From: Bdellovibrionota bacterium
Lineage (GTDB): Bacteria; Bdellovibrionota_C; UBA2361
Length of the DNA stretch: 29,739 bases
Direction of reading: 5' to 3'
NCBI GenBank assembly: GCA_044352465.1
Contig: JBILDU010000031.1
Span: forward strand, 1-29,739
In this document: positions 1 to 28,253 of the stretch, piece after piece
Position numbering within the stretch: position 1 is the first letter of the stretch
How the letters are laid out: each line of letters opens with the position of its first letter
Program-made: the position numbers and the translations under genes
Notes under the pieces: generated by a model
The model's input: the letters and a program-made list of their open reading frames with translations, nothing else
Databases searched by the model: none
Told to the model about the DNA's origin: nothing

Positions 1-917
1 CCGTATGGCGCGGTGAGAGCCCACGATTTGAAACCGCTCGACTCAAACCCATGGTCAGCCGGCTCAAGCACGACAGCAGTTCCAGAGATCCCGAGAATCT
101 TCGGCCAAATTCCGGTGTAGCGCAGTTGGCTTTTGGCATGGTCGCGATTGCCGCGACAGTCTATCCCGGTAAAGGTCTCGAATGCCTGCAACCCGGTCTC
201 GAGCTCTCGCTCTAGATTCGAGGTGTAGACCGGTTCGATCGTACCCTTAAAGCCGCCATCACGAAGCCACCGCTCTATCGCCGGCGCGCCCCTGTAGGAG
301 AGCAGGTCCTTGAGAAGCGGCGCTATCTCCGCGGGAAGGATATCGACGAAGGTGCTCATTCGACGGGCCCAAAGGGAGTCCTCAACGACGTAGACCACTC
401 GCTTCGCTCCGGGGGGTGGGGTCCCGACGGTTTCCCGGATCTGGTCGAAGCGGGGGAACCACGAGCTCATCCACCGCTCGAGCTTGACGATGTCGGAGAG
501 GTCTCGACGATGCCGAATTAAATCGAGTAGGTCTCCAGGCAGGAGAGGACAGAAGGTTCCAAGGACTACCGTGGACTCGATCTTCAGTCCGGATGGTATC
601 GCCGCTCCCAGAATCACATTCCCCCGCCCCTTATCGAACCAGCGTGGCTCAAAGGGGGACTCGGTGGGCTTGGGGAGGGCGGTGGGGAGAGTAATTCGGT
701 TGGGCCGATCGGCGTTGACGGTGTTTACCGCCATGAGCCAGCCATTAATCCGATCAAGCACCGACAAGGTGGGATCATTTGCCTGAGCGAACGGATCCGC
801 AAGCTCTGGGAGCGACGTCGGGAAAACAGCTCGCTCGGGCAGTCTAATCCCAGCCGGGAAAGATGCGGACGGTGCCAGATTCGAAAGGGAGTTGGAACGA
901 GATAGTTCTTGAGTCAT
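1..917 (-). CDS. Hypothetical protein, >305 aa, running off the left edge of the window
   Basis: Manual translation from ATG at 917 (MTQELSRSNSLSNLAPSASF...KRVVYVVEDSLWARR...WALTAPYG) has no stop before position 1. It is missing from the ORF track because its stop lies outside the window. No family recognised. Confidence 0.75.
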   Translation of the reverse strand, partial: MTQELSRSNSLSNLAPSASFPAGIRLPERAVFPTSLPELADPFAQANDPTLSVLDRINGWLMAVNTVNADRPNRITLPTALPKPTESPFEPRWFDKGRGNVILGAAIPSGLKIESTVVLGTFCPLLPGDLLDLIRHRRDLSDIVKLERWMSSWFPRFDQIRETVGTPPPGAKRVVYVVEDSLWARRMSTFVDILPAEIAPLLKDLLSYRGAPAIERWLRDGGFKGTIEPVYTSNLERELETGLQAFETFTGIDCRGNRDHAKSQLRYTGIWPKILGISGTAVVLEPADHGFESSGFKSWALTAPY

Positions 918-1026
918 ACACCTACCCACGAAATATAAAACCGCCTCACAACGTCGCCGCGGCGAGGGCACCGACCCATTGAAGCCACTGCAGCGCCATT
1001 ACGTCTCAACCGACTGCATCTCAATC

Positions 1027-3000: not shown

Positions 3001-4260
3001 CTACCCGGCGATCTTGACGAGGTGGTAGTTCTTCTTTCCGGTTCGCATCAAAAAGAGCCCCGTATCTGCCTTGAGAGCCGAGGAGATTATCAGCGCTGGG
3101 TCGCTTACCCGCTCGTTGTTGAGATACACTCCGCCGCTCGTAATGAGCCGCCGGGCTTCGCCCTTTGAGGCCAGCGTCTTTGAATTAACGAGGGCGTCGA
3201 CGATAGTCAACCCACCGAGTTCGCCCCGGTTAAGGGTGGATGACGGTACGTCAGCGAAGATCTCCTCGAGCTGAGACTCGGAAAGCCCATCGAAGGAGCC
3301 CCCGAAGAGAACCTGCGCGCTTCTCTTTGCATCTTCGGTCGCAGCGCTCCCGTGAATCAAGGTGGTCACAGCGTCGGCGAGTGCTTTTTGCCCCGCCCGC
3401 TCAGCCGGGGCAGCGAGCATCTTCGCTTCGAGCGCGGCGATCTCCTCCAGCGAGAGTAGGGTAAAGATCTTCAGATATCGCACCACATCCGCGTCCGGCA
3501 CATTGAGCCAGAACTGGTGAAACTTGAATGGGCTCGTGAGCTCTGGGTCAAGCCACACGGCTCCCCCCTCAGACTTGCCGAATTTCCGGCCCTGGCTATC
3601 GAGAATGAGGGGCGCGGAGAGAGCGAATGCCTCGCCTTGTACTTTGCGGCGGATAAGCTCGAGCCCCGCAGTGATGTTGCCCCATTGGTCCGAACCTCCG
3701 AACTGGAGTTTGCAATTCCTGGTCGTGTAGAGGTGCAGAAAATCGAAAGACTGCAGGAGCATGTAGCTAAATTCGGTGAATGAGATCCCGTCGCCTTCGA
3801 GCCGCGCTTTCACTGAATCTTTCGCCAACATGTAGTTCACGGTGAAGTGCTTCCCGATGTCGCGCAGGAAGTCGAGGAGGGTTACCTCGCGGGTCCACGA
3901 ATAGTTGTCGACGAAATCCGCGGTCACTCCGGAGCGGTGCATGATCGCTCCTACCTGGGCCGAGATCGCCGCCACGTTCGCGTCGACGACTGCGCGCTCA
4001 AGAAGTTGCCGTTCCGCACGTTTGCCCGATGGATCACCGATGGCACCGGTAGCACCACCAAAGAGGAGCACCGGCTTAAGCCCCGCCCGCCCGAGGTGAA
4101 TCGCCACGAGGATCGAGACGAGGTTGCCGATGTGGAGGCTCTTTGCCGTGGGGTCAAAGCCAACGTAGCAGCCGTCCCCGGCAACTAAATTCTCGACACC
4201 CGCTTCATCGGAGATATCTTGAATGAGGCCGCGCCAGCGCAGCTCTTGAAGGGAAATCAT
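3001..4260 (-). CDS. tyrS: Tyrosine--tRNA ligase
   Basis: YVGFDPTAKSLHIGN (HIGH), QFGGSDQWGNI, KFGKS (KMSKS) and a C-terminal S4-like domain. Confidence 0.98.
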   Translation of the reverse strand: MISLQELRWRGLIQDISDEAGVENLVAGDGCYVGFDPTAKSLHIGNLVSILVAIHLGRAGLKPVLLFGGATGAIGDPSGKRAERQLLERAVVDANVAAISAQVGAIMHRSGVTADFVDNYSWTREVTLLDFLRDIGKHFTVNYMLAKDSVKARLEGDGISFTEFSYMLLQSFDFLHLYTTRNCKLQFGGSDQWGNITAGLELIRRKVQGEAFALSAPLILDSQGRKFGKSEGGAVWLDPELTSPFKFHQFWLNVPDADVVRYLKIFTLLSLEEIAALEAKMLAAPAERAGQKALADAVTTLIHGSAATEDAKRSAQVLFGGSFDGLSESQLEEIFADVPSSTLNRGELGGLTIVDALVNSKTLASKGEARRLITSGGVYLNNERVSDPALIISSALKADTGLFLMRTGKKNYHLVKIAG

Positions 4261-15715: not shown

Positions 15716-16019
15716 CATAGACTGCTGTGACGGTTTGAAGAGGCCCGGATGCGGCCTCCTCGAAACTCAAAGCGAGTTCGCCGCGCTCGCAGACAAATCG
15801 GATAAAATACCGCGGGATCGCCGTCCGAAAGGGACCGGTTTTCGCCGTTCGAACTTTTTGAAGGGGGCGGCAATCGGAATCCGTGCGTGGAATCGAATCC
15901 CTCGGGGACTCCCGCGGGGGATGCCGCTCAAGTCTCCAAGCCCCCCTCCCGTGGAATAAATCCGTTTGCCCGCTTTGGGAGAGCGTAATAAATTAGCGGT
16001 GAACTTGAGGGGGGTGGTG

Positions 16020-16775
16020 GTGCAATCCACGAAGATCGACCTATTTTTTTATCGGGCTGGACGCTCGGCGGCGGAGGAAGCTGCCTACGTCGCTTTCAAT
16101 CCGAGCCTCACCCCGGGGAGCCTCGTCGCCGCGACTTCGGTCACGAGCCGTGAAAGCATCAGTAATCAGGTCGCTGCAAAGATGGCGCTCGAGCGGTTTG
16201 TGGAAGGGGTGCTTGATTTCTTTGCGTCGGGAGCCGCTGACTCGAAGAGTCGCACTGAGGATGAGAAGAGCCTGCAGGTTCTTGAGGCTGCTTTTAAAAA
16301 AGCGAACGCCTCGGTCTATCAATTCGGGCACAAACTTGCTGCGGGGGGGCGGATGTCGGCCTCGCTGCTTGGGCTGGTGATCGAGGAGCGCTGTGTGGCG
16401 GCGGGGCGTGCTGGGCGTGCGTCCGCGTATCTCTCTCGTGGGGCCAGTCTTTTCCCGTTTTTTGACCAGCCCCGTGATGTGGGGATGAACGAGCACCAAG
16501 CGCGCGAGCAGCTTGTGGGTGCCCATTCGATGGTGGCCGTGGAGCTCGCCTCGGTCCCGGTTGAGCCGAACGACGTTATCGTGGCTTTCGCGGAGCCTCT
16601 CACCGAGGGGGAGGAGCTTCGGCTCAGGGATTTGGTGCAGAGCGTCGATATGGGATCGGCGAACCCGGCGGAGGCGCTGGTGCGGGGGCTTTTTGGGCGA
16701 GAGCGGGAGGTTACCTTTGCGCTTCTCGCCGTGGTAGGCCCAGCGGCAATTTATCTCGATCGGGCGATTGGTTAG
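16020..16775 (+). CDS. PP2C/PPM phosphatase-fold protein lacking metal-binding aspartates
   Basis: QVAAKMAL, LEAAFKKANASV, RMSASLLGLVI, AGRAGRASAYLSRG, VEPNDVIVAFAEPL and EVTFALL follow PP2C motif order. GTG start chosen after the GAGGGGGG RBS. Confidence 0.72.
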   Translation: MQSTKIDLFFYRAGRSAAEEAAYVAFNPSLTPGSLVAATSVTSRESISNQVAAKMALERFVEGVLDFFASGAADSKSRTEDEKSLQVLEAAFKKANASVYQFGHKLAAGGRMSASLLGLVIEERCVAAGRAGRASAYLSRGASLFPFFDQPRDVGMNEHQAREQLVGAHSMVAVELASVPVEPNDVIVAFAEPLTEGEELRLRDLVQSVDMGSANPAEALVRGLFGREREVTFALLAVVGPAAIYLDRAIG

Positions 16776-19305: not shown

Positions 19306-20541
19306 ATGGAACCGCGACCGAGCGAACAAATCGACCCGACCCCCCGAGGGCTTCAGGCTTTGGGGGACTTGGCCACGCCGGCTGGATTCCAGGCCCTTCG
19401 TGATACGCTTGGTCGTCTTGCCCCCGATACGATCGCGGGTAATGAGCGGATTAAAAATTTTCTCGCAAAGCTCGGTGAACTGCGCGTGGAAATTCCAGAG
19501 CTCTTGCGCGATCTCGCGCAGACCGGCCCTGAGGAAGCGCGAGGACCGCTCTTGCGGGTCCCGGAGGGTGGAGCGGTTCCACAATTCGTGCGCGATCCAC
19601 ATCCGATCGATCTTGAACGGGTACTGGTGGTGACCAAGCAGTCGAAGGTCCAGTACGATATGGCGCGGTACGGGTGGACCGACGCGCAACTACAAGAAGA
19701 GTATGCGCGCGGCCCGGAGGATAAAACACGGATCCTCAAGAGCCATCAACGCCAGATGGCAGCGCTCGATGTCCTCTCCAGCTACATCTCGCCGGAGCGG
19801 ATCGTCTCACGGAATGCGCTTCGCCCCGCCGATATCGCCGCTGCTTCGCTGGTCATCGCCTTCGGGGGAGATAACCATCTTCAATTCGTATCCCACGCTA
19901 TCGACGATGAGACACCACTCTGGGGGATGAATTCCGATCCGCAGACGAGTTTCGGGGCGCTTCTGGGCGGGAATATCAAGGACCTTCCCCCCGCACTAGG
20001 GGCGTTGTCGCGGGGGGAATATCGTTTCGAGCCGTGGACCAGGCTGCGGGTGGAGATCGATGGACGACCGCTCCCGTCCGCTCTCTGTGATGTCTATATC
20101 GGTGAGCGGGAGCGAAAGTATATGTCGCGTCATCGTCTTGAGGTGACCGATGACACGGGGAGAAAAGCCTCACTTGAGCAGAAGTCGTCAGGGATGCTTG
20201 TGATAACAGGGGCTGGCTCATCAGGATGGGCGAGAAGTGCGGGGCGATATCTGCACGGTGGTGATTGCGATTTCCCCCGTGAATCGCGCTACAGCCGTTT
20301 TCTTCTCACCGAGCCATCCTTAGCTATCCCCGGTGCTGAAGATCCGCCGCGGCAGAGTGCTCTGCCCACGCTATGCAACGGCATCCTTCTCGAAGGTGAA
20401 AGTCTAGTCGTCCATTCGCTCAACGATAGCGATGGGATCGTTAGTATCGATTCCCTTGAGGAGGTGCAGTTTCCGCGCGGGCGAACCGTGACGGTACGGC
20501 TCGATTCGCAACCGCTTTGGGTGCCCGTAGTGGCGCTCTAA
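19306..20541 (+). CDS. NAD kinase family protein, NADK2-like, with ~100-aa N-terminal extension
   Basis: VLVVTKQSK, VIAFGGDNH, WGMNSDPQTSFGAL, ALCDVYIGE and EQKSSGMLVITGAGSSGW. Confidence 0.85.
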   Translation: MEPRPSEQIDPTPRGLQALGDLATPAGFQALRDTLGRLAPDTIAGNERIKNFLAKLGELRVEIPELLRDLAQTGPEEARGPLLRVPEGGAVPQFVRDPHPIDLERVLVVTKQSKVQYDMARYGWTDAQLQEEYARGPEDKTRILKSHQRQMAALDVLSSYISPERIVSRNALRPADIAAASLVIAFGGDNHLQFVSHAIDDETPLWGMNSDPQTSFGALLGGNIKDLPPALGALSRGEYRFEPWTRLRVEIDGRPLPSALCDVYIGERERKYMSRHRLEVTDDTGRKASLEQKSSGMLVITGAGSSGWARSAGRYLHGGDCDFPRESRYSRFLLTEPSLAIPGAEDPPRQSALPTLCNGILLEGESLVVHSLNDSDGIVSIDSLEEVQFPRGRTVTVRLDSQPLWVPVVAL

Positions 20542-20679: not shown

Positions 20680-20707
20680 TAAGCTGTTTCTCAAACTTAG
20701 CCGTTTA
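20680..20707 (+). promoter_or_regulatory. Putative sigma28 (FliA) promoter
   Basis: TAAG-N16-GCCGTTTA versus consensus TAAA-N15/16-GCCGATAA, about 80 nt upstream of the flagellin gene. Confidence 0.5.
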
Positions 20708-20786
20708 CAGGGGTGGGGCCTCTTGCGGGTAGCGTGTACCTCGCTCACGCACGCCCCTTATTCCGCGACGGAACGCGGGAGGTGTA

Positions 20787-22607
20787 GTGGCTGTACGGAT
20801 AGGCAGTAATATATCGTCGCTGCAGGCGCAACGCCGCGTCGGCGAAGCCACATCGTCGGTGGGTGCGAGCCTATCGCGCCTCTCCTCCGGTCAACGAGTT
20901 AACCGCGCCTCCGACGACGCGGCGGGGCTCGCAATCGCTGATACCCTCCGCACCCGCCGTACGGTGTACGACCGCGGTGCTAAAAACGTGAGCGACGGCG
21001 TGAGCCTCCTTACTATCGCCGATTCAGCGATTGGAGAGCTCGCGGGGCTCACGACCCGAATCCTCGAACTCGCCGAGCAAGGGGCGAACGGGGTTTACTC
21101 TGTGGCCCAACGGAAGGCGATGGATACCGAGGCGCAACGGCTTCGGGACGAGTTCCTCCGCATCTCTCGCTCGACTCAGTTCAACGGGCTGAACCTCTTC
21201 GACGGCTCGATCCAAGGGTTGCGTATCCAAGCTGGTTTGGGTGTCGATGGGGGTGTCGCCTCATCGCTCGGTGGGAAGCTCGGGAGTGGGTACGTTGTCG
21301 ATGGATCGGGCCAGACTATTCTTGGGAACGTTCAGAGTTCAACGGTTGCGGATTTTAGTGGAGACGGGGTCACCGATGTCGTAGGCTGGGCGGGCGCGGG
21401 GCTCGCTTTTCAGGCCGGTCTTGGGAACGGAACATTCTCCGCTGCGACGACCTTGACAACCAGTGCCACACCGTACGGTTTCGAAGCCGCGGATTTCAAT
21501 AACGATGGGGCGCTTGACCTCGTTGGTGCGGTAGGTACCGCAACCCTCTCGGTCTTTCTTAATAATCGGGTGGGTGGTTTTAACCCGGCAACGAGCGTCA
21601 CCACCGGGGGAGCGGCGTCGTTGATTGCCGTCGTCGATGCCAACAGCGACGGTCGGATGGACATCGTTACTGCCACGAACAACCTCGCCGGAAACGATAC
21701 GTTATCGCTGTTGCTTGGAAACGGTTCGGGGGGCTTCGCCGCACCGAGTACTATCTCCCTTGGGACCGGGTTTGATCCGAATGCTCTGGAGGCGGGAGAT
21801 TTTAATGGGGATGGAGTGACCGATCTCTTACTACTGTCTAATGCTGGTTCGTCCGTGGTGTATCGAGGAAACGGCGTTGGGGGCTTCACCCTCCAGAACT
21901 CTACAAGTGGACCGTATCTTAACGCCACCGTGGGCGATTTTAACGGCGATGGGATCTCCGATTTCGCCCAGAGTGATGCGGGGACTGTGGAGGTGTGGCT
22001 CGGGTCCCAAAGCGGTACTTTCACCCTATCCTCGTCGTTATCTGGTAATCAAGTCGGTGTCGGCGATATGAACGGTGATAGCGCGCTCGATATTATCACC
22101 ACCGATGGCGATAATAACTCTTTCTCGATTCTCCTTGGGAACGGTAGTGGTGGGTTTTCCGATTCGGGGATGCAAGGAGTTGGATTTCTTCCAAGCATCG
22201 CCACCGGTGATGTCGATGGTGACGGGGTGACCGATATCGTGGCGAGTGGTTATACCCCGTTTCTCGGCAAGACTCGGGACGGCATCAACCCGATTCAGCC
22301 GTTCTCACTCCTTACCCAGGCGGATGCGCGCCAAGCGATAGCTCCGCTCACCCGTAAGCTTGAGGAGCTCAGTAAACAGCGGGGCGTTATCGGCGCCTTT
22401 CAATCCCGCCTCGCGAGCGCGTCGCTCAGCGCCTCATCTCAAAGCGACGGATTTCGGGCGGCGGAGTCGCGGATTCGGGATGTCGATGTAGCGCAGGAGG
22501 CTGCCCGGCTCGTCGGCTCTCAGATCCGGCAACAAGCTGCCACTGCGGTTCTCGCGCAGGCGAATCTCCAGCCGAGCCTCGCACTTCAGCTGCTCGCAAT
22601 TTCCTAA
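20787..22607 (+). CDS. Flagellin with seven inserted FG-GAP/VCBS repeats
   Basis: N-terminus has RLSSGQRVNRASDDAAGLAI and TQFNG.NL; C-terminus has RGVIGAFQSRL, ESRIRDVDVAQE and VLAQAN. The centre holds seven DxxxDGxxD-type repeats. RBS GGAGGT. Confidence 0.93.
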   Translation: MAVRIGSNISSLQAQRRVGEATSSVGASLSRLSSGQRVNRASDDAAGLAIADTLRTRRTVYDRGAKNVSDGVSLLTIADSAIGELAGLTTRILELAEQGANGVYSVAQRKAMDTEAQRLRDEFLRISRSTQFNGLNLFDGSIQGLRIQAGLGVDGGVASSLGGKLGSGYVVDGSGQTILGNVQSSTVADFSGDGVTDVVGWAGAGLAFQAGLGNGTFSAATTLTTSATPYGFEAADFNNDGALDLVGAVGTATLSVFLNNRVGGFNPATSVTTGGAASLIAVVDANSDGRMDIVTATNNLAGNDTLSLLLGNGSGGFAAPSTISLGTGFDPNALEAGDFNGDGVTDLLLLSNAGSSVVYRGNGVGGFTLQNSTSGPYLNATVGDFNGDGISDFAQSDAGTVEVWLGSQSGTFTLSSSLSGNQVGVGDMNGDSALDIITTDGDNNSFSILLGNGSGGFSDSGMQGVGFLPSIATGDVDGDGVTDIVASGYTPFLGKTRDGINPIQPFSLLTQADARQAIAPLTRKLEELSKQRGVIGAFQSRLASASLSASSQSDGFRAAESRIRDVDVAQEAARLVGSQIRQQAATAVLAQANLQPSLALQLLAIS

Positions 22608-24772: not shown

Positions 24773-25726
24773 ATGGGAATAGATCCAAGCCAGCCGAAAG
24801 GCGAAGGCCCCGAGCAGTCCCCCGCGTCATCCAACGACCAACGACCCGCTGAAGGTGTAGCCGGAATCTCGGATTCGGATTTGTCAGCGCTATTCGATGG
24901 CGACTTTGAACCGATTGATCCGATTTACCGTGCCTTAGGAATAGACCCCGATGGGATCGTGGCGGAGCACCTCGAGGCCGAGGTGATGGACTCCCTTGGA
25001 AAGCGGATGCCCGAGAGTATGCTCCGCCGAGCCATGCCCCGTGTCCTCGGTGAAACTGAGGACGGGAGGGTCGTGGTCGCCCTCGAATTCCGTCGCCCGG
25101 AGGGTAGTCTTATCCCAGCGGCCCACCTTGTTGAGGGCCCCGATCCGGCGGAGCCGGGTGGTTTTCGGGGTAGGGGTTCCGATCTCCCGAACAAGAAGGT
25201 GGTTACCACCATCGCCGGTAACGGAGCGCTCAATGAGGGTGATTGGGAGCGCGTATCGGGGCAGGTGACGGTTATCCTTACGCAGCGCTATCCGGGCCAG
25301 TCCTCTGATGGCTTTACGATGCAGCTTACCGTTAACTCAATGAGCGGCGTCGCGGCGCTTTTTTCCTCGATAGAGTTGAAAGAGAGAAACGGTCAGCCGT
25401 CAGCCGCTCGTACGTTGCTCGATCGTTTTATCGCTGGGCGCATCGGGGCAGAAACAGGGGATCGGGAGTCGCCGCCCGATTACATACTCATCACTCCGCT
25501 TACGCAAAGTGAAGATGGGGTAGCAAAGCTCTCGGTCGTCGTGGCGGCGACGTTACGAGGTGACGATTATCATTCGGCGCTTGAGGGGATGGAGATCGAA
25601 GTGGGGCTCTCCACAGCGAAGTTACTCACCATCAAGGGGGGGACGTGGTACAACCGCGGTTCCGCAGCACTCTACGTTCAGGAGCTTGAGCGGCGCGAAC
25701 GCCAGCATCGCAAAGATGCGGAATGA
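24773..25726 (+). CDS. Hypothetical protein with a disordered acidic N-terminus
   Basis: 317-aa ORF fills the gap between YyaL and the REP cluster; TATACT lies 6 nt upstream of the ATG. No family recognised. Confidence 0.75.
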   Translation: MGIDPSQPKGEGPEQSPASSNDQRPAEGVAGISDSDLSALFDGDFEPIDPIYRALGIDPDGIVAEHLEAEVMDSLGKRMPESMLRRAMPRVLGETEDGRVVVALEFRRPEGSLIPAAHLVEGPDPAEPGGFRGRGSDLPNKKVVTTIAGNGALNEGDWERVSGQVTVILTQRYPGQSSDGFTMQLTVNSMSGVAALFSSIELKERNGQPSAARTLLDRFIAGRIGAETGDRESPPDYILITPLTQSEDGVAKLSVVVAATLRGDDYHSALEGMEIEVGLSTAKLLTIKGGTWYNRGSAALYVQELERRERQHRKDAE

Positions 25727-27515: not shown

Positions 27516-28253
27516 CTATGACTCTATCACGATATCGGCGATTTCTCGTAGATTGAGGCGGCGCACCGTTTCTCCCCGCTCCTCGAAAAAAGCGGAGTTC
27601 AGGACCGCTAACTGGCACACCTCGATACTGCCGAATCGTTCGATGAGCATCTCCCGGCGGCTGAGCGCGCCACCATCAACCAGAACGATCTCCTTCGATG
27701 GGGTGAGCAAGAAATTCTCGGCGTGGTGGTCCACTAAGTGAAATTTTTGGGCAAAAAAACCGGAGAGCGTTTGGACGAGTTTTGATTTGGCTTCATCCCG
27801 CTCGATCGTCCCATCGGTAAGAGCTCGATTGAGTGGGGTGCCTTCAACGAAAGTGGCGAGAACGGCCACCAGAAAGCCCGCGCGATCCCGCAGTGCTCCG
27901 GCGTAATTCGGCATGTGGGGGAGCCTCGCCGCGAGCGCCACCTTGTCCCGGTTGAGGAGGTCGACCGCGGTGTCGAACGACATGTCGCCTGACGGAGCCA
28001 CGAGCTTGAGCACGTGTGACCGCGCGTGAATCTCGAGGCGATAAACCTCCGCGTATTCGCACACGCGCTCCTCCGCGAGGCGTTGTAGTTTCGAGCACGA
28101 GCCAAATTCCGCCTTGAGCGCGGCTGTGACGGTCGACGTCTTCGGAATCCCCGTTTTGGCGAGGGCGAAGTCGAACGTGGAGGTGCGGGGTAGAACGCGC
28201 TGCACCGGATCGGTGCGGCTCTCTTGTCTTGTTTTGCGGAGTGGCTCAACCAT
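27516..28253 (-). CDS. Protein kinase-like superfamily protein
   Basis: AEVYRL, VLKLV (beta3 Lys), FVEGTPL hinge, HLVDHHAENFLL catalytic loop and IVLVDGG (DFG-like). Confidence 0.7.
   Translation of the reverse strand: MVEPLRKTRQESRTDPVQRVLPRTSTFDFALAKTGIPKTSTVTAALKAEFGSCSKLQRLAEERVCEYAEVYRLEIHARSHVLKLVAPSGDMSFDTAVDLLNRDKVALAARLPHMPNYAGALRDRAGFLVAVLATFVEGTPLNRALTDGTIERDEAKSKLVQTLSGFFAQKFHLVDHHAENFLLTPSKEIVLVDGGALSRREMLIERFGSIEVCQLAVLNSAFFEERGETVRRLNLREIADIVIES

Follow-up and report, generated by a model that had tools for sequence, protein, structure and literature searches.

The window analysed here is a stretch of 29,739 nucleotides, positions 1 to 29,739 of contig JBILDU010000031.1 in assembly GCA_044352465.1 of a Bdellovibrionota bacterium. 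It carries a flagellin gene, here called the FG-GAP flagellin, in which a predicted seven-bladed beta-propeller lies between the two polymerisation regions. The coding sequence, identified as an open reading frame (ORF) and by matches to Pfam and NCBIfam, occupies 20787..22607 on the forward strand and encodes 606 amino acids followed by a stop codon, with a GTG start and an intact frame. A ribosome-binding site, GGGAGG (20777..20782, +), was read from the sequence 4 nucleotides 5' of the start codon. A sigma-28-like promoter motif lies at 20680..20707 (+) and ends 80 nucleotides 5' of the start codon; the start coordinate given in the original prediction for this locus, 20680, is the start of this motif and not of the gene.

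Both ends of the encoded protein are those of a flagellin. Flagellin_N, which represents the N-terminal helices of D0 and D1, lies at 20802..21209 (+) and covers residues 6-141. The Pfam match (6.2e-30) extends over profile positions 2-137 of 139 and scores 104.5 bits against a curated cut-off of 26.6, and the assignment agrees with helices in the structural model and with Foldseek matches to filaments. Flagellin_C, the C-terminal helices of D1 and D0, lies at 22353..22595 (+), where residues 523-603 match profile positions 6-86 of 86 (1.8e-16; 60.7 bits against a curated cut-off of 23) within a helix spanning residues 511-604 in the model. Between these ends FG-GAP_3 was matched in seven stretches (5.6e-44) and the FG-GAP family at 2.9e-17. 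The propeller is assigned to 21273..22283 (+; residues 163-499) from Pfam, the models and structural and profile matches. The linker from the propeller to D1, TRDGINPIQPFSLLTQADA (22272..22328, +; residues 496-514), is family-specific and conserved, with a mean pairwise identity of 0.59 in the family alignment compared with 0.40 for the propeller.

All seven blades have a predicted calcium loop of the form D-x-N/D/S-x-D-G/S-x-x-D, found on the forward strand by motif scan and alignment: DFSGDGVTD in blade 1 (21351..21377, residue 189), DFNNDGALD in blade 2 (21492..21518, residue 236), DANSDGRMD in blade 3 (21636..21662, residue 284), DFNGDGVTD in blade 4 (21798..21824, residue 338), DFNGDGISD in blade 5 (21936..21962, residue 384), DMNGDSALD in blade 6 (22065..22091, residue 427) and DVDGDGVTD in blade 7 (22209..22235, residue 475). 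The claim that flagellin N- and C-terminal polymerisation regions enclose exactly seven FG-GAP repeats was thereby confirmed, and the seven motifs that the original prediction quoted were all found, at 21351-22235, in agreement with its range of about 21350-22240.

The best NCBIfam models for the protein are flagellins. An identity as FlgL was rejected because TIGR02550 scores 72.1 bits against a cut-off of 127.2 and a separate FlgL-like gene lies on another contig; the name 'flagellin-like hook-associated protein FlgL' that homologues carry at the Joint Genome Institute is a generic label. An identity as flagellinolysin was also rejected, since a Pfam scan of the protein gave no peptidase family at E <= 1. 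The gene is a genuine and intact member of a propeller-bearing flagellin family.

An AlphaFold2 model of the full-length protein, built from an alignment of 42 sequences (A1), has a mean predicted local distance difference test score (pLDDT) of 84 and a predicted template modelling score (pTM) of 0.76, with long helices at residues 7-129 and 511-604 and 28 strands between residues 163 and 499. Both in this model and in that of the insert alone (pLDDT 93.2, pTM 0.91; alignment of 45 sequences, A2) the 28 strands form seven four-stranded blades in a closed propeller. The N-terminal strand 163-172 completes blade 7, so that in the model the ends of the propeller are adjacent, which would suit insertion into the D1 hairpin.

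When the whole model was searched with Foldseek, solved flagellar filaments ranked first (9au6 at 3.2e-16 and 9n59 at 1.2e-15, with 7sn4, 9gnz and 8sug); the core was matched to 9au6, 9n59 and 7sn4 at E-values of 3e-16 to 4.5e-14, and all filament matches range from 3e-16 to 1e-9. Over the insert, the same search gave the seven-bladed lectins AAL-2 (4tqm, 1.2e-10) and PVL, and then to UmbA4, CRTAC1 and a Tc-toxin propeller. VIA-align placed integrin alpha heads on top for the isolated domain, with alpha-IIb (7la4) at Z 29.6 and a root-mean-square deviation of 2.6 A over 307 residues, and generic WD40 propellers ranked below them at Z 25-27. The expected closed, seven-bladed, integrin-like propeller was thus recovered in the predicted structure. 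The viral structure library gave generic propellers only. A search of the insert profile against PDB sequences gave UmbA4 (2.8e-26), AAL-2 (3.1e-24), UmbA (2.4e-23) and PVL (1.4e-21), and more weakly CRTAC1 (3.9e-12), TcB/YenB (about 3e-11) and integrin alpha-V (6.8e-9). By sequence profile, the nearest solved relatives of the propeller are carbohydrate-binding (lectin) propellers.

Conservation is unevenly distributed over the propeller. In alignment A1, the D/N positions of each of the seven loops show either no variation or at least 90% conservation. Strands are numbered after the topology of AAL-2 as given in the accessible part of PMC4483166, with a short 2-3 loop, a long 3-4 loop and a connecting segment. 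Mean entropy is 0.96 bits in the 1-2 (calcium) loops, the most conserved element of the propeller, 1.60 bits in the 3-4 loops (GNGxGxF), and 2.63 and 2.86 bits in the 2-3 loops and the 4-1 connecting segments, which are the most variable. Inserted columns are found mainly in strand 4 (27, the highest number), the 2-3 loops (26) and the 4-1 segments (11). Across the family, mean pairwise identity is 0.60 in the N core, 0.56 in the C core and 0.40 in the propeller. The calcium sites are predicted to lie on the lower face, and the variable upper face is, as judged by alignment, the face that binds ligand in the lectin relatives. Integrins likewise bind ligand on that propeller face.

The best 120 database matches in a word-indexed search all combine flagellin and propeller (E <= 5e-108, 40-63% identity). 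Most of them are 570-670 residues long and one is 488; they are annotated at source as 'flagellin', 'FG-GAP-like repeat-containing protein' or 'VCBS repeat-containing protein', and 108 of them match the motif exactly seven times. The best 150 representatives at 50% identity include about 50 full-length propeller flagellins of about 600-650 residues, and the rest are giant multi-FG-GAP proteins with blades 34-43% identical to the propeller. These giants (G044 contig 60, G045 contig 14, P0125-P0137 and others) consist of many FG-GAP propeller units, 30-43% identical, in 1,100-7,400 residues, and some are encoded by genomes belonging to the same phylum. The flagellin insert may have come from such proteins.

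A full-length match (best E <= 1e-50) was counted by hand in 27 of the 41 genomes of the host's order. In the phylum as a whole, 53 of 124 genomes and 37 of 64 genera have one at E <= 1e-45, and some genomes have at least 10 copies, the number of candidates scored per genome being limited to 10. Public records of related loci are mostly metagenome-assembled genomes (MAGs) labelled Bdellovibrionota, Bdellovibrionales or Oligoflexia, with some labelled Deltaproteobacteria or Pseudomonadota. Two MAGs are labelled Pirellulales and have one and three copies. A planctomycete origin was rejected because only the starting MAG gave a match among 81 Pirellulales genomes sampled, and because the Pirellulales copies nest inside a Bdellovibrionota-type clade, which suggests transfer or mis-binning. 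The 24 sequencing-run matches are all DNA contigs, mostly from lake-water metagenomes. The gene is covered in pieces by contigs of all four lake-water runs, and no population variation was seen in the form of differing letters among the contigs of these four runs.

The assembly (3.13 Mb in 170 contigs, 94.9% complete) contains 12 Flagellin_N matches. Four of these are FG-GAP flagellins, namely this gene and copies on contigs 112, 45 and 99, and 26 of the 30 FG-GAP_3 matches of the genome fall within them. The short flagellins comprise four complete genes for proteins of about 285 residues, one truncated by the end of its contig and one that is divergent. The remaining matches are a flagellin of 425 residues with an unrecognised insert and one FlgL-like gene. 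The 425-residue flagellin (contig 10, L007:643-1917) has an outer domain of about 190 residues without a Pfam family, and clusters in the core tree with flagellins of 413-440 residues from relatives.

None of the 18 neighbouring ORFs scanned in the window has a flagellar domain in Pfam, and those with Pfam matches are housekeeping genes (TyrRS, aconitase, ABC transporter, DUF255 thioredoxin, ThyA and others). The description of the gene as an orphan therefore holds for its neighbourhood, where flagellar genes are absent as predicted, but not for the genome, in which the gene is one of four FG-GAP paralogues found when paralogues were counted. Five sizeable ORFs without a Pfam family at E <= 1e-5 are located at 3-971 (-), 15966-16775 (+), 19306-20541 (+), 24773-25726 (+) and 27516-28253 (-), and the one at 19306-20541 adjoins the flagellin gene on its upstream side. 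No conserved neighbour, such as a chaperone or a glycosyltransferase, was found in 458 ORFs across 50 loci of relatives; flagellin itself recurs (59 of the 458 ORFs), and the next family occurs in 4 loci only.

Genes for MotA, MotB, FliL, FliM, FliN, FliO, FliP, FliQ, FliR, FlhB, FlhA, FlhF, FlhG and FliA lie together on contig 117, and the genome has two FliD genes and one FlgL. The genome therefore encodes what export and assembly require, including the fliA, fliD and export genes that an exported, polymerising flagellin presupposes.

The second FliD (contig 40, L100:1348-2931) is divergent, has 528 residues, matches FliD_C only (1.2e-18) and lies among unrelated genes. It was rejected as a dedicated cap for propeller flagellins since at least two FliD matches are common with or without them: a hand count gave 39 of the 53 genomes that have an FG-GAP flagellin and 27 of the 71 that lack one, a difference that is confounded by one genus making up most of a 36-genome family. 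There are also two further FHIPEP (FlhA) paralogues. One (contig 47, L097:7400-9541) is full-length, scores 590 bits and comes directly after Tad/Flp pilus genes, which encode an AAA_31/CbiA (ParA/MinD-type) ATPase, RcpC/CpaB, a T2SSE ATPase and two T2SSF proteins; a kinase-like HEAT protein comes next, and no further type III export genes were found close by. The other, in the locus L098:7929-13422 on contig 168, has 605 residues and lacks the middle of the profile. Its neighbours encode a sigma-70-family factor, a YscJ/FliF-like lipoprotein, two products without Pfam matches and a TPR protein, and the locus may be either a relic or a type III-like module reduced to a minimum.

The sigma-28 consensus is TAAA-N15-GCCGATAA. 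The motif 5' of the FG-GAP flagellin, TAAG-N16-GCCGTTTA, agrees with this general consensus at 9 of 12 positions, and a motif of the proposed sigma-28-like type is thus present upstream of the gene. Similar motifs lie 5' of the other three FG-GAP paralogues (8-10 of 12). All four fit a loose pattern with 45 matches genome-wide, against 24-31 in shuffled sequences, and four of the 45 are the FG-GAP flagellin sites; because contigs 45 and 99 are near-identical in this region, the four sites do not count as independent. The motif was not convincing 5' of the genome's own short flagellins. With a relaxed, GCCG-type -10 element, matches were found in 28 of 58 FG-GAP upstream regions and in 4 of 15 short-flagellin upstream regions, all of the latter distal. 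Upstream of one short flagellin (contig 22, about 3700-3790) the sequence reads TGGCAA-N5-TTGCA, which we take to resemble a sigma-54 promoter; short and propeller flagellins may therefore answer to different sigma factors. The effective number of codons (ENC) of the FG-GAP flagellin gene is 45.3, the 9th percentile of 1126 long ORFs, and codon bias weakly suggests that, among the four FG-GAP paralogues, this gene shows the strongest adaptation to expression.

The evolution of the core was followed in a quick maximum-likelihood tree of concatenated cores from 88 flagellins, which are those of 91 two-domain ORFs that passed a coverage filter, with FlgL and truncated copies excluded. The 16 short flagellins form one tight clade with a support of 98 in the Shimodaira-Hasegawa-like approximate likelihood ratio test (SH-aLRT), and the FG-GAP flagellins may have a single origin. 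The four paralogues in this genome group together as a single clade (SH-aLRT 98) consisting of two pairs. The polymerisation core is under purifying selection, with a ratio of non-synonymous to synonymous substitution rates (dN/dS) of 0.08-0.13 in the closest paralogue pairs.

The paralogues on contig 45 (21565-23505, -) and contig 99 (25849-27924, -) have near-identical promoters and differ strongly along their length. The N-terminal core is 97% identical with a synonymous rate (dS) of 0.14, the C-terminal core is 82% identical with a dS of 1.4, and the propeller is 51% identical with a saturated dS; the top-face loops are 15% identical compared with 91% for the whole core. This mosaic points to gene conversion of the core or to exchange of a propeller cassette. 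The dN/dS of 0.84 for the top loops is itself saturated and unreliable, and only one FG-GAP pair has an unsaturated core dS. Among relatives, three flagellins of 675-683 residues nest within the FG-GAP clade of the core tree. The two of these that were scanned (L079:4306-6354 and L087:380-2404) have a PD40 (TolB-type) propeller and not FG-GAP, which suggests that one propeller class has been replaced by another.

The most probable function, held with moderate confidence, is that of a filament flagellin which displays a variable, calcium-stabilised binding propeller. The protein would be a late-class flagellin, probably dependent on FliA/sigma-28, exported via the flagellar type III apparatus of the genome and polymerised through its canonical D0/D1 core into the flagellar filament, most likely as a minor or conditional subunit beside the short flagellins of 285 residues. 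The seven-bladed FG-GAP propeller would replace D2/D3 and have its seven predicted calcium sites on the lower face. The hypervariable loops of the upper face (2-3 loops and 4-1 segments) are interpreted as a binding surface, which would make the filament a multivalent adhesin or lectin-like fibre, and the paralogues would offer different specificities on the same core. We infer export, polymerisation, calcium binding and any ligand binding of the FG-GAP flagellin, and the adhesin/lectin and prey-recognition function likewise. If FG-GAP flagellins truly assemble into filaments, thousands of calcium-stabilised propellers would be on display along each flagellum. Such filaments would form a new functional class alongside the proteolytic flagellins and a natural surface-display scaffold, in a family that is abundant in uncultured freshwater Bdellovibrionota-type bacteria of lakes. 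For the single gene the result is modest, since the family is already in print and the gene adds a further intact member to it.

Several observations weigh against the reading as a filament flagellin with a binding propeller. The residues conserved across blades are all structural (the calcium loop and GNGxGxF), and the propeller alignments contain no ligand-pocket residue that recurs from blade to blade. According to the accessible part of PMC4483166, the pocket for N-acetylglucosamine (GlcNAc) in AAL-2 and PVL is made up of Asn/Asp, Gly-Gly-Trp and His of the 4-1 connecting segment and is repeated across blades. This pocket (Asn/Asp...GGW...His) is not conserved in the FG-GAP flagellins, whose alignments are gapped at GGW...H, and it is absent because the connecting segments are shorter than in AAL-2 and PVL; the only two Trp residues of the propeller fall outside these segments. 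The strict sigma-28 pattern is present in only 4 of the 58 FG-GAP upstream regions, three of them from this genome, and the motif was rejected as a family-wide feature. Relative to the same 1126 long ORFs, the short flagellins are more codon-biased, with three at the 2nd-3rd percentile of ENC, and the other three propeller paralogues are weaker (27th, 71st and 96th percentile). Propeller flagellins may therefore be rare subunits, and the short flagellins are probably the bulk subunits, as far as codon bias, a weak basis, can indicate. The D0/D1 cores of the 61 FG-GAP flagellins in the quick tree are found on long branches of 0.4-1.0 changes per site. Finally, a membrane sheath over the filament, if the lineage has one, would hide the propeller.

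The structural nature of the conserved positions and the absence of a PVL-type pocket would also fit a filament flagellin with a ligand-free propeller. This rigid outer domain, stiffened by calcium, would make the filament thicker or stiffer or would shield it, in the service of hydrodynamics or of protection from proteases, phages or grazers. In the accessible text of Fields et al. (PMC11532411) the corresponding cluster #55 is described only as a rigid scaffold fold, the outer domains of other flagellins have been reported to modulate motility, and a disc of 51 x 27 A would be expected roughly to tile the filament lattice. However, a lattice-forming shell is expected to conserve its contacts, yet the surface loops are the most variable part of the protein and have almost nothing in common between paralogues whose cores are nearly the same. 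Genomes with 4 to at least 10 divergent copies are also hard to explain by mechanics alone, even if escape from phages or grazers could also drive loop variation. A propeller without ligand is considered rather unlikely. The same loop variation might instead be taken further than in the preferred reading of a variable binding propeller. A uniform core and promoter, maintained by gene conversion, would then be combined with interchangeable propellers, mostly of the FG-GAP type but PD40 in some relatives, with upper faces that are nearly wholly different, and the copy expressed would set what the filament binds. The targets might be prey cells, algae, particles or glycans, and the flagellum would be a programmable multivalent adhesin. 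This cassette system is a tentative proposal, and as a full account it is unlikely.

Secreted flagellin homologues exist, for instance FlaC of Campylobacter, and the FG-GAP flagellin might similarly be exported by the flagellar type III system without building a filament, as a secreted or tip- or junction-associated flagellin-like adhesin. The scattering of the genes without flagellar neighbours, both here and in the 50 loci of relatives, is consistent with this, as are the long D0/D1 branches compared with the short flagellins and ribosome-binding-site k-mers that are weaker and less uniform than those of the short flagellins. However, the protein retains complete D0 and D1 regions at either end, on which purifying selection is strong, the N-terminal core of two paralogues has been kept near-identical by recent gene conversion or exchange, and the protein is not FlgL, for which the genome has its own gene. 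An exported protein outside the filament is accordingly judged quite improbable. A silent or degenerating paralogue, or an artefact of the assembly, is very unlikely. Nothing in favour of this was found for the gene itself, although some copies in other genomes contain stop codons. The frame of 606 codons is intact with a ribosome-binding site, the contigs of the four lake-water runs reproduce it without differences, the core is under purifying selection and the codon bias is at the 9th percentile. The filament flagellin with a variable binding propeller remains the preferred reading.

Among published work, judged from titles and the starts of abstracts, only the study by Fields et al. 2024 (Nat Commun 15:9500, PMC11532411) was found to bear on the FG-GAP flagellin family. 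In that study, as far as its accessible text goes, flagellin outer domains predicted by AlphaFold were grouped into 682 clusters. One sentence is given to 'WD40-repeats in cluster #55' as a rigid scaffold, and one line proposes co-option from cellular proteins. Supplementary file 2 lists 40 members of this cluster, with A0A521GVE6 as representative, and 16 of the 40 have PF13517/PF01839 FG-GAP labels. Total lengths are 545-670 residues and outer domains 282-407 residues, and the source MAGs bear the labels Deltaproteobacteria, Pseudomonadota, SAR324 and Bradymonadales. The supplement also includes one FG-GAP flagellin as a singleton, from Fuerstiella marisgermanici. The protein described here has the same combination of Flagellin_N, Flagellin_C and FG-GAP_3 with an outer domain that falls within about 280-410 residues, and by architecture and size the FG-GAP flagellin family appears to be cluster #55; an accession link to the cluster was not found for 10 homologues checked. 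The accessible text of the paper calls the fold WD40 and contains no calcium loops, FG-GAP assignment, taxonomy, paralogy or function for it.

Flagellinolysin is similar in that a foreign domain has been placed in the hypervariable region of a polymerising flagellin, often in extra copies. According to the accessible text of Eckhard et al. 2017 (PMC5595980), its insert is an HEXXH metallopeptidase that is active on filaments, whereas the FG-GAP flagellin has no peptidase domain. The same paper reports 61 domain types in flagellin hypervariable regions; FG-GAP is not mentioned in its searchable text, and one supplement contains no FG-GAP, VCBS or propeller.

The best profile matches of the insert, the fungal lectins PVL and AAL-2 (2bwr, 4tqj) and UmbA, the lectin carried by umbrella toxin particles of Streptomyces (8w20, 9oee), share its blade topology, with a short 2-3 loop, a long 3-4 loop, a connecting segment and ring closure by a shifted strand, and also have calcium loops. 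The blades of the FG-GAP flagellin are shorter, about 47-49 residues compared with about 56 in the lectins, and lack the GlcNAc pocket. PVL, AAL-2 and UmbA are free or toxin-borne lectins and not flagellin inserts. Integrin alpha heads (7la4, 4wjk, 4um8) are the top structural matches (Z 29.6-28.1) and share the D-x-D-x-D-G-x-x-D loops, but identity is about 15%. They have 3-4 calcium sites and require a beta subunit, while the FG-GAP flagellin has the motif in all seven blades and no known partner.

The filaments of Geovibrio thiophilus (9au6, 792 residues), E. coli O157:H7 (7sn4) and Salmonella FliC (1ucu) have the D0/D1 core in common with the FG-GAP flagellin (Foldseek 3e-16 to 5e-12), and these solved filaments likewise carry their outer domain at the D1 hairpin. 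Their outer domains are Ig-like or beta-folium and none is a propeller. AAL-2 measures 51 x 27 A according to PMC4483166, and PMC11532411 gives about 11 x 5 A for the repeat along the protofilament. Together with the existence of filaments built from the 792-residue flagellin of 9au6, these dimensions indicate that the size of the propeller is compatible with a filament.

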